From: Escherichia coli
Lineage (GTDB): Bacteria; Pseudomonadota; Gammaproteobacteria; Enterobacterales; Enterobacteriaceae
Assembly: GCF_003334815.1 (NCBI RefSeq)
Contig: NZ_QOWO01000003.1
Reading direction: 5' to 3' (one strand)
Length of the DNA stretch: 64,000 bases
Shown: in pieces, positions 747 through 35,675 of the stretch
Layout: each line of letters opens with the position of its first letter
How positions within the stretch are numbered: the stretch's first letter is position 1
Program-made: the position numbers and the translations under genes
The notes under the pieces: model-generated
Seen by the model: the letters and a program-made list of their open reading frames with translations, nothing else
Databases searched by the model: none
Told to the model about the DNA's origin: nothing

Positions 747-1007
747 GTAGGTTCTCCCTAACCATTTCTCAATTAAATAATTAATTTTAATTTATAAGCC
801 AGATAAATGGGCTTGGTAGTAATAGTTGTTAAAATAACATAAATAGCCGTACTCACTCTATATAAACAGAAAAGAAAGGTTAATTATTGGTGTTAGCTAT
901 ATAAAAAGTAACAACAGCAATGCATATGAATAATTAAAGGTTATGCAACGGGCAAAGATTAAACTTCCCAGTTTAATGACAGGTTGCTGTACTTGCGTTT
1001 GTTGCTC

Positions 1008-1107
1008 TTGCCGGATGCAGCGTAAACGCCTTATCCGGCCTACAGTTCATTGCAAATCCATTCAATTTCAATGCACGATGTAGGCCTGATAAGCGTAGCG
1101 AATCAGG
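1008..1107. repeat. REP/BIME element (two inverted REP units: GCCGGATGCAGCGTAAACGCCTTATCCGGCCTACA ... GTAGGCCTGATAAGCGTAGCGAATCAGGC)
   Basis: Characteristic E. coli REP palindromic units in the yjeJ-epmB intergenic region. Confidence 0.7.
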
Positions 1108-1140
1108 CAATTTTAATGTTTAACTTCCCTGTTTAATCAG

Positions 1141-35496: not shown

Positions 35497-35563
35497 TCAA
35501 TACCCTCTTTAAAAGAAGAGGGTTAGATTGCTGACAAAATGCGCTTTGTTCATGCCGGATGCG

Positions 35564-35651
35564 GCGTGAACGCCTTATCCGGCCTACATAATCACGCAAA
35601 TTCAATATATTGCAGAGATCATGTAGGCCGGATAAACGTAGTGCATCAGGC
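35564..35651. repeat. REP/BIME element (inverted REP pair)
   Basis: GCCGGATGCGGCGTGAACGCCTTATCCGGCCTACA ... TGTAGGCCGGATAAACGTAGTGCATCAGGC, same architecture as the element at 1008-1107. Confidence 0.7.
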
Positions 35652-35675
35652 AAAACGTAAACAACGAGTACATTA

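Follow-up and report, generated by a model that had tools for sequence, protein, structure and literature searches.

A pair of inverted REP sequences between yjeJ and epmB of an Escherichia coli K-12-like genome is flanked by two nearly identical direct repeats, which raises the question of whether these repeats are the trace of an insertion. The DNA analyzed here (the window) is a single stretch of 64,000 nucleotides, and the MG1655 coordinate of any of its positions is obtained by adding 4,373,488. The intergenic region is 393 nt long, and the REP-containing element sits 3-19 nt downstream of the epmB stop codon. The MG1655 RefSeq record has no REP features annotated at yjeJ-epmB, and hence supplies no official REP name. 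The features discussed below are collected in Table 1.

Table 1. Positions of genes, repeats and BIME-1 parts in the 64,000-nucleotide window
Feature	Position	Strand	Sequence	Remark
yjeJ	start codon 744-746	minus		beyond the intergenic region from epmB
Target-site duplication, epmB-distal copy	962-977		AACTTCCCAGTTTAAT	single copy in empty alleles
Junction dinucleotide	978-979		GA	between duplicated target and BIME-1 left terminus
BIME-1 left terminal motif	980-1009	plus	CAGGTTGCTGTACTTGCGTTTGTTGCTCTT	30 nt; consensus CAGATTGCTGACAAAGTGCGCTTTGTTCAT, 25 loci
Y REP (palindromic unit)	1010-1043	plus	GCCGGATGCAGCGTAAACGCCTTATCCGGCCTAC	
L linker	1044-1079	plus		36 nt, between inverted REPs; Y-to-Z1 gap of 36-39 nt defines BIME-1
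Z1 REP	1080-1108	plus	GTAGGCCTGATAAGCGTAGCGAATCAGGC	inverted orientation
BIME-1 right terminal motif, shortened	1109-1121	plus	AATTTTAATGTTT	consensus AATTTTGCGTTTGTCATCAGTCTC
Target-site duplication, epmB-proximal copy	1122-1137		AACTTCCCTGTTTAAT	followed by CAG, then the epmB stop codon
epmB CDS	1141-2169	minus		stop codon TTA at 1141-1143
efp	2211-2777	plus		
Second BIME-1	~35526-35660			between rnr (ends 35496) and rlmB (starts 35676)

An earlier sequence-only reading had described the repeats as about 20 bp long and as matching at 17 of 19 positions plus a 2-bp indel. Both strings were located, AACTTCCCAGTTTAATGACAG at 962-982 and AACTTCCCTGTTTAATCAG at 1122-1140, where it adjoins the epmB stop codon, and the direct repeat is real and correctly placed, but the two counts belong to different registers: 18 of 19 positions match with the 2-nt gap, while 17 of 19 match in an ungapped 19-mer register that pairs TTAAACTTCCCAGTTTAAT (959-977) with TTTAACTTCCCTGTTTAAT (1119-1137). 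The judgment that such a match is not expected by chance was borne out: when the 393-nt intergenic region was shuffled 300 times with its dinucleotides preserved, the best 19-mer pair had 16 matches (reached twice), so that 17 was never attained, and the core AACTTCCC[AT]GTTTAAT was found only at 962 and 1122 when both strands of the window were searched. The left repeat ends in CAG (980-982), a triplet that is also the left terminus of the BIME-1 consensus (CAGATTGCTG; here CAGGTTGCTG), and the target, too, has CAG at this position. The preferred reading takes this CAG as the terminus of BIME-1 itself, and the GA taken for a 2-bp indel is junction sequence; because of the coincidence at CAG, the secure duplicated unit is only 16 nt, with a start-to-start spacing of 160 bp between its two copies. 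Other BIME-1 loci have 0-2 extra nucleotides at the left junction, and E. coli E166 has only G at yjeJ-epmB.

The repeats had been described as bracketing a 100-bp REP pair. The REP pair does lie inside, but the bracketed object is the whole BIME-1 including its terminal motifs, and the segment between the repeats is one complete BIME-1, a REP doublet of the RIP/RIB/REPIN type. Its Y and Z1 REPs aligned with five other BIME-1 copies, the homology to these copies reached past both REPs into the outer motifs, and the 36-nt linker has a length within the range of the 53 BIME-1 instances from a wider survey (see below). In genomes without the insert, the best matches to positions 978-1126 were the BIME-1 copies at gcd-cueO, yfiE-srmB, livF, fdnI-yddM and livJ-panM. 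The consensus of 25 loci is 152 nt long and consists of CAGATTGCTGACAAAGTGCGCTTTGTTCAT, a 98-nt core and AATTTTGCGTTTGTCATCAGTCTC; its termini AGATTGcTGACAAA and TTTGTCAtCAGTCT pair as inverted repeats, and as single-stranded DNA it folds as one long hairpin (-36 kcal/mol). The yjeJ-epmB insert thus shares with BIME-1 (RIP/RIB) the Y REP, the 36-nt linker, the inverted Z1, the outer motifs, the extragenic position at a gene 3' end and the strain-variable presence, and differs in a shortened right motif and a degenerate IHF core: it is about 142-145 bp long, its right motif retains 13 of about 24 nt, corresponding to the start of the conserved motif, and the linker (1044-1079) held no match to WATCAANNNNTTR with at most one mismatch. 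The second BIME-1 in the window, between rnr and rlmB, has an intact IHF-like core (ATTCAATATATTG at 35600-35612) and a hairpin, ACCCTCTTTAAAAGAAGAGGGT (35500-35521), just left of its left terminus, the right-hand second copy being absent.

Two further ideas about this segment were rejected. Copying of the non-REP parts (983-1009 and 1110-1121) from a donor locus was discarded, search and alignment having identified both as conserved BIME-1 terminal motifs. A functional RNA or signal at yjeJ-epmB was discarded as well: a scan of 700-1300 found no promoter-like or terminator-like sites, and the sole Rfam match, on the minus strand at 951-1040, was a sub-threshold match to naRNA4 (39.9 bits, the gathering score being 59.5); naRNA4 is a family of nucleoid-associated RNAs derived from REPs, and the match most likely reflects REP similarity only.

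If the repeats were produced by the insertion, alleles without the element should carry one copy, and such alleles were found in abundance. Positions 760-1340 (581 bp) were compared by megablast with 5,426 complete E. coli genomes, and the locus was found in all but a few. With query coverage of at least 80% taken as filled, 3,251 of the 5,426 genomes carry the filled allele, and most of the remaining genomes (about 2,175, ~40%) matched over 419-421 bp instead of 581, in two pieces. The empty allele is 160-162 bp shorter than the filled one and reads ...GGGCAAAGATTA-AACTTCCCTGTTTAAT-CAGTTACTGCTGG, that is, left flank, a single repeat copy and the epmB stop codon; the empty alleles sampled (O157:H7 Z1814, an ST131 strain, YDC107 and U13A) read ...GGGCAAAGATTA AACTTCCCTGTTTAAT CAG TTACTGCTGG, and only two length classes occurred among the genomes sampled. 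The empty-site check proposed in the sequence-only reading therefore came out positive, with alleles lacking BIME-1 and holding one copy of the 16-mer in ~40% of the 5,426 E. coli genomes and also in E. albertii. Presence/absence polymorphism of BIME-1 as such was already known, and 71% of BIME-1 length lies in strain-specific loops (PMC1187871).

The same footprint was found at other BIME-1 loci. Two of five other BIME-1 copies that had been fetched by chance had long flanking direct repeats, and both repeats were hairpins. At yfiE-srmB the filled allele, present in 2,525 of 5,426 genomes, has AATG(C/T)CGGG(C/A)TTAAACCCGGCATT on both sides, and the empty allele (ATCC 25922, NZRM4165) has this unit once (242 vs 418 bp). 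At fdnI-yddM the filled allele of O157 has AAATGGCGCTGTAAAAGGCGCCATTTT on both sides, and the empty allele (strains A2 and O111:H8 8B) has one hairpin (234 vs 411 bp); K-12 J53 carries here two tandem BIME-1 separated by the terminator hairpin, with three hairpin copies in all, which implies unequal exchange between the duplicated hairpins. The empty allele at tsx-yajD (strain TUM12368) has one AATGCCGGATTTCATATCCGGCATT, and that downstream of fbaA (strain ESM2.2) has one 37-nt unit. At ysgA-metE none of the 5,426 E. coli genomes covered at least 80% of the filled query, and the sampled alleles (e.g. APEC O78) are empty with one CCGGGTGGTATTACCACCCGG; a metagenome contig with flanks about 94% identical was the only source of the filled form, so that gain is favored over loss at this locus. 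In all six loci tested (yjeJ-epmB, fdnI-yddM, yfiE-srmB, tsx-yajD, ysgA-metE and fbaA-downstream), the filled allele reads repeat-BIME-1-repeat and the empty allele holds one repeat.

A survey extended these observations. Metagenome contigs were scanned for the Z1 REP, which gave 120 loci, and a BIME-1 instance was defined as a Y REP 36-39 nt upstream of Z1, yielding the 53 instances at 25 distinct loci; the 120-nt left flank of each locus was then locally aligned with its 120-nt right flank, 600 non-cognate pairs serving as the control. The cognate flanks scored 53, 34, 31, 30, 30, 30, 28, 23, 22, 21, 21, 20 and downward, as compared with a mean of 15, a 95th percentile of 20, a 99th percentile of 22 and a maximum of 27 for the non-cognate pairs. 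Seven of the 25 loci thus lay above every control pair, and 11 scored at least 21. The position of the repeats is constant, the left one ending about -30 from the Y REP and the right one starting about +23 past the Z1 REP: the left copy stops where CAGATTG starts, and the right copy begins past ...CAGTCTC or a shorter right end (about 12 or about 4 nt). The repeats form palindromic stem-loops, in many cases preceded by a run of A and followed by a run of T, and the duplicated unit of 16-37 bp follows the length of the hairpin and is not fixed. They are direct, not inverted, in 10 of the 11 top loci, the one inverted exception being due to the element's own inverted termini within the scored flanks. 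In about half of the 25 loci there is either a hairpin on just one side or no repeat that reaches significance; most of the loci below the top 11 have a one-sided hairpin, as does the BIME-1 between rnr and rlmB. A target of the terminator type (G+C-rich stem and T run) is present at, for example, tsx-yajD, ysgA-metE and fdnI-yddM. The duplicated target is almost always a hairpin or an intrinsic-terminator stem-loop, and this is a property of the BIME-1 family.

The yjeJ-epmB locus fits this rule less neatly than the terminator loci. Its distal copy lies within a small AT-rich palindrome, ATTAAAC-TTCCCA-GTTTAAT (958-977), which is weak (7 A/T-rich pairs, -5 kcal/mol), the duplication takes in only 16 of the palindrome's 20 nt, and a G+C-rich stem followed by a T run was absent from the scanned positions 700-1300.

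To place the insertion in time, EpmB-anchored loci were compared in one genome per species (80 loci), a set in which E. albertii was the sole outgroup and E. fergusonii was not represented. The site is empty in E. albertii (...TAGATTAAACGTCCCTGTCTAATCAG), and the insert occupies the corresponding position in E. whittamii, Escherichia sp. MOD1-EC7003, Escherichia sp. E1V33 and strain SCPM-O-B-8794. The distal repeat of E. whittamii reads AACTTCCCTGTTTAAT, with T as its ninth base, and is thus identical both to the empty site and to the proximal copy of E. coli; this indicates that the duplication was originally perfect, the A at 970 having arisen later in the E. coli/E1V33 alleles. Insertion with target duplication, one of the two origins suggested from the sequence alone, is thus supported by the single-copy empty sites together with the perfect duplication in E. 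whittamii, and the other suggestion, a local duplication, does not stand as a separate alternative, the duplication being the footprint of the insertion. Since filled orthologues occur in four other Escherichia lineages and inter-clade divergence inside BIME-1 is similar to that of the flanks, the insertion is old, and on this comparison of sequences it probably predates the split from E. whittamii.

At least two events are required to account for the distribution (E. albertii empty, four lineages filled, E. coli about 60:40). Some of the empty alleles in E. coli may have arisen secondarily by precise deletion, and would then not be never-occupied sites. In a stronger form, the empty alleles of E. 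coli would have arisen generally by slipped mispairing between the 16-bp repeats, stimulated by the palindrome, and we regard this as almost evenly balanced, leaning slightly against it. The filled orthologues with an element as diverged as its flanks, the A/T difference by which the two repeat copies have diverged in E. coli, and the three hairpins of the K-12 fdnI-yddM tandem, which show recombination or slippage between such repeats, all point toward deletion. E. albertii, however, is empty, and the empty alleles in B2 (ST131) and E (O157:H7), groups that branch earlier than A/B1, need several losses, or loss plus re-acquisition. Allele exchange offers an alternative to deletion, as the intergenic region of E1V33 is 97.7% identical to K-12 and its flanking genes only about 93%, a contrast that suggests recombination across clades. 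The E. coli polymorphism could plausibly stem from either process, precise loss between the repeats or replacement of alleles by recombination. The deletion account concerns polarity within E. coli only, and it still needs an insertion with duplication. An insert with inverted repeats lying between direct repeats is the classic substrate for transposase-independent loss, as in precise excision of Tn10/Tn5, a process that accounts for loss only and not for the origin of the repeats. Such excision and palindrome-stimulated deletion between short direct repeats were reportedly described by Foster 1981, Albertini 1982 and Sharp and Leach 1996 (ERIC), and the abstract of Bachellier 1997 is said to report 'excisions of a whole BIME-1'.

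Overall, we consider it highly probable that the repeats at yjeJ-epmB are the target-site duplication of a BIME-1, that the duplicated hairpin is a family-wide footprint with a RAYT as the putative catalyst, and that precise loss or exchange followed later. Of the way in which this footprint arises we speak more tentatively: it is possible, with the doubts still outweighing the support, that BIME-1 integrates by an undescribed mechanism in which both strands of a target hairpin, in most cases a terminator, are cut at the base of the stem and the hairpin is duplicated on either side. The target would be recognized by its structure, whether a single-stranded hairpin or an extruded cruciform, and the overhangs left by the cuts at the stem foot on both strands would consist of the hairpin itself. 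Both strands of the almost palindromic BIME-1 would then be joined to these overhangs, and gap filling would copy the hairpin on both sides. The target 3'-OH ends would each follow the hairpin on their strand, and their joining to the BIME-1 5' ends would give exactly the observed product. The most likely catalyst would be the REP-associated Y1/HUH transposase TnpA-REP (YafM), which is encoded outside the window and would putatively act symmetrically on both strands, and since target and BIME-1 are both palindromic, both strands could be substrates. With a long palindrome between direct repeats, a precise later loss of BIME-1 by slipped-strand mispairing or recombination would be possible and would regenerate the empty site; such loss, or allele exchange by recombination, could account for the polymorphism of about 60:40 in E. 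coli despite an old insertion. Resolution of a cruciform into hairpin-capped ends was rejected as a route, because it predicts that one loop is reverse-complemented, and in 10 of the 11 loci both copies, with their loops, have the same orientation.

Y1/HUH enzymes, TnpA-REP among them, cleave single-stranded DNA next to hairpins, the products being a 3'-OH and a 5'-phosphotyrosine (PMC3333891, PMC3479197), and BIME-1 shares with IS200/IS605 its subterminal hairpins, the REP hairpins lying 13-30 nt from the element ends. However, the IS200/IS605 family, RAYTs included, is said to make no target duplications (PMC3333891, PMC2817692), whereas a duplication was found at yjeJ-epmB and at 7-11 of the 25 BIME-1 loci, so TnpA-REP as the catalyst would need an undescribed mode of action. 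The REPIN-RAYT system has the same object as its replicator, with two inverted REPs forming a long hairpin, vertical inheritance and rare duplication, but its IS200/IS605 model inserts single-stranded DNA 3' of a short target with no duplication (PMC3333891), as opposed to the 16-37 bp seen here. If the hairpin-cut mechanism is true and the work of the REP-associated Y1 transposase, it would be a double-strand symmetric HUH transposition, a mode not known in IS200/IS605, and it would explain why BIMEs lie only at gene 3' ends and why their loss is scarless.

Two other routes to the same product are weaker alternatives to the hairpin-cut model. In the first, BIME-1 would have been moved as double-stranded DNA by a DDE transposase, in the manner of a MITE; the usual short staggered cut of the enzyme would span the foot of an extruded cruciform, so that the duplication would be as long as the palindrome. 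BIME-1 resembles bacterial MITEs (Correia, ERIC/IRU) in being small and non-coding and in having terminal inverted repeats (paired in the consensus, the right terminus being shortened in the yjeJ-epmB copy), a target duplication, and filled and single-copy empty sites among strains, and the variable length of the duplication, which tracks the hairpin, would follow from a cut of this kind. MITE duplications, in contrast, are short and of fixed length (2-10 bp), whereas that of BIME-1, at 16-37 bp, is atypically long and defined by the structure of the target. BIME-1 is present in every E. coli genome, as against the patchy content of IS elements (preprint 10.1101/2021.07.10.451892), and we judge a DDE route improbable. 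Elements of the IS1634 type reportedly make long, variable direct repeats (Vilei 1999) and resemble BIME-1 in this respect, but they are autonomous members of the IS4 family for which we know of no link to hairpin targets. Likewise, we know of no IS with ends matching CAGATTGCTGACAA and of no cognate IS for BIME-1.

In the second route, the nascent strand at a replication fork would copy the hairpin, switch to a BIME-1 elsewhere and return upstream of the hairpin, leaving a duplication. Forks are stalled by hairpins and long palindromes, and the duplication always includes a hairpin; nevertheless, the element ends are sharply defined, with the same nucleotides in unrelated loci, and there is no evident microhomology between targets and element ends, and we rate template switching as less probable still. 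Finally, that the repeats came from an unrelated local tandem duplication or from chance, with BIME-1 landing between them later, has nothing in its favor beyond their bare presence and is very improbable, given that no shuffle reached the observed match, that the sampled genomes fall into two length classes only, and that six of six loci have one copy without the element and two with it.

In the literature searched, no description was found of target duplications flanking BIME-1 or REPINs, although key older papers lay outside that scope and an earlier description is possible. The mechanism by which REPs, BIMEs and REPINs spread is called unknown there and is modeled on transposons that make no target duplication; one review states that REPs lack MITE signatures (PMC3184786), and the nearest statement found is that some REP families in other phyla lie inside small palindromes (Di Nocera 2013). 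The yjeJ-epmB locus itself is an ordinary polymorphic BIME-1 insertion, and the part worth following up is the general hairpin-duplication footprint. Pairs of filled and empty alleles with a structure-defined footprint constrain the mechanism with respect to the cut site, the involvement of both strands and the use of terminator hairpins as landing sites. The footprint would also explain the extragenic position of BIME-1 at gene 3' ends, the hairpin on either side and the scarless reversibility, which would make BIME-1 insertions homoplastic markers in strain comparison.

Several alleles have changed since the insertion. MOD1-EC7003 has lost the distal copy and a few flanking bases (about 25 nt, ~955-981) and has kept BIME-1, showing the decay of a two-copy footprint to a one-sided one. 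In E1V33, 10 nt are deleted from the L linker, equivalent to window positions ~1055-1064. A common filled class of 576 bp, represented by E. coli 2011C-4251, lacks 5 nt (AATTT) of the right motif at window positions 1109-1113, and in its distal repeat AATTTCCC replaces AACTTCCC, a change common to E1V33. E. coli LY180 has an extra segment of 59 bp, CTGATGAATCCCCTAATGATTTTTATCAAAATCATTAGGGGATTCATCAG, inside the Z1 REP (~1084-1092), flanked by a 9-bp duplication, GGCCTGATA; judged by the IS10 outside ends, it looks like the 50-bp scar left by nearly precise excision of Tn10 in an engineered strain. NZ_CP092452.1 and NZ_CP187189.1 have an IS1 insertion in the yjeJ-epmB region, in one case on a filled and in the other on an empty allele. 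In E. coli E166 the region is 89.5% identical to K-12, the epmB 3' end is 91.5% identical and an ISVsa5 (IS4-like) transposase gene stands in place of yjeJ; this allele looks like an import from a divergent Escherichia lineage. Outside Escherichia, Citrobacter sp. wls619 has a different REP pair downstream of epmB, adjoining the hairpin GAGTGTCCCTGTTCAGGGACACTC, which is an independent colonization of the epmB 3' end in another genus.
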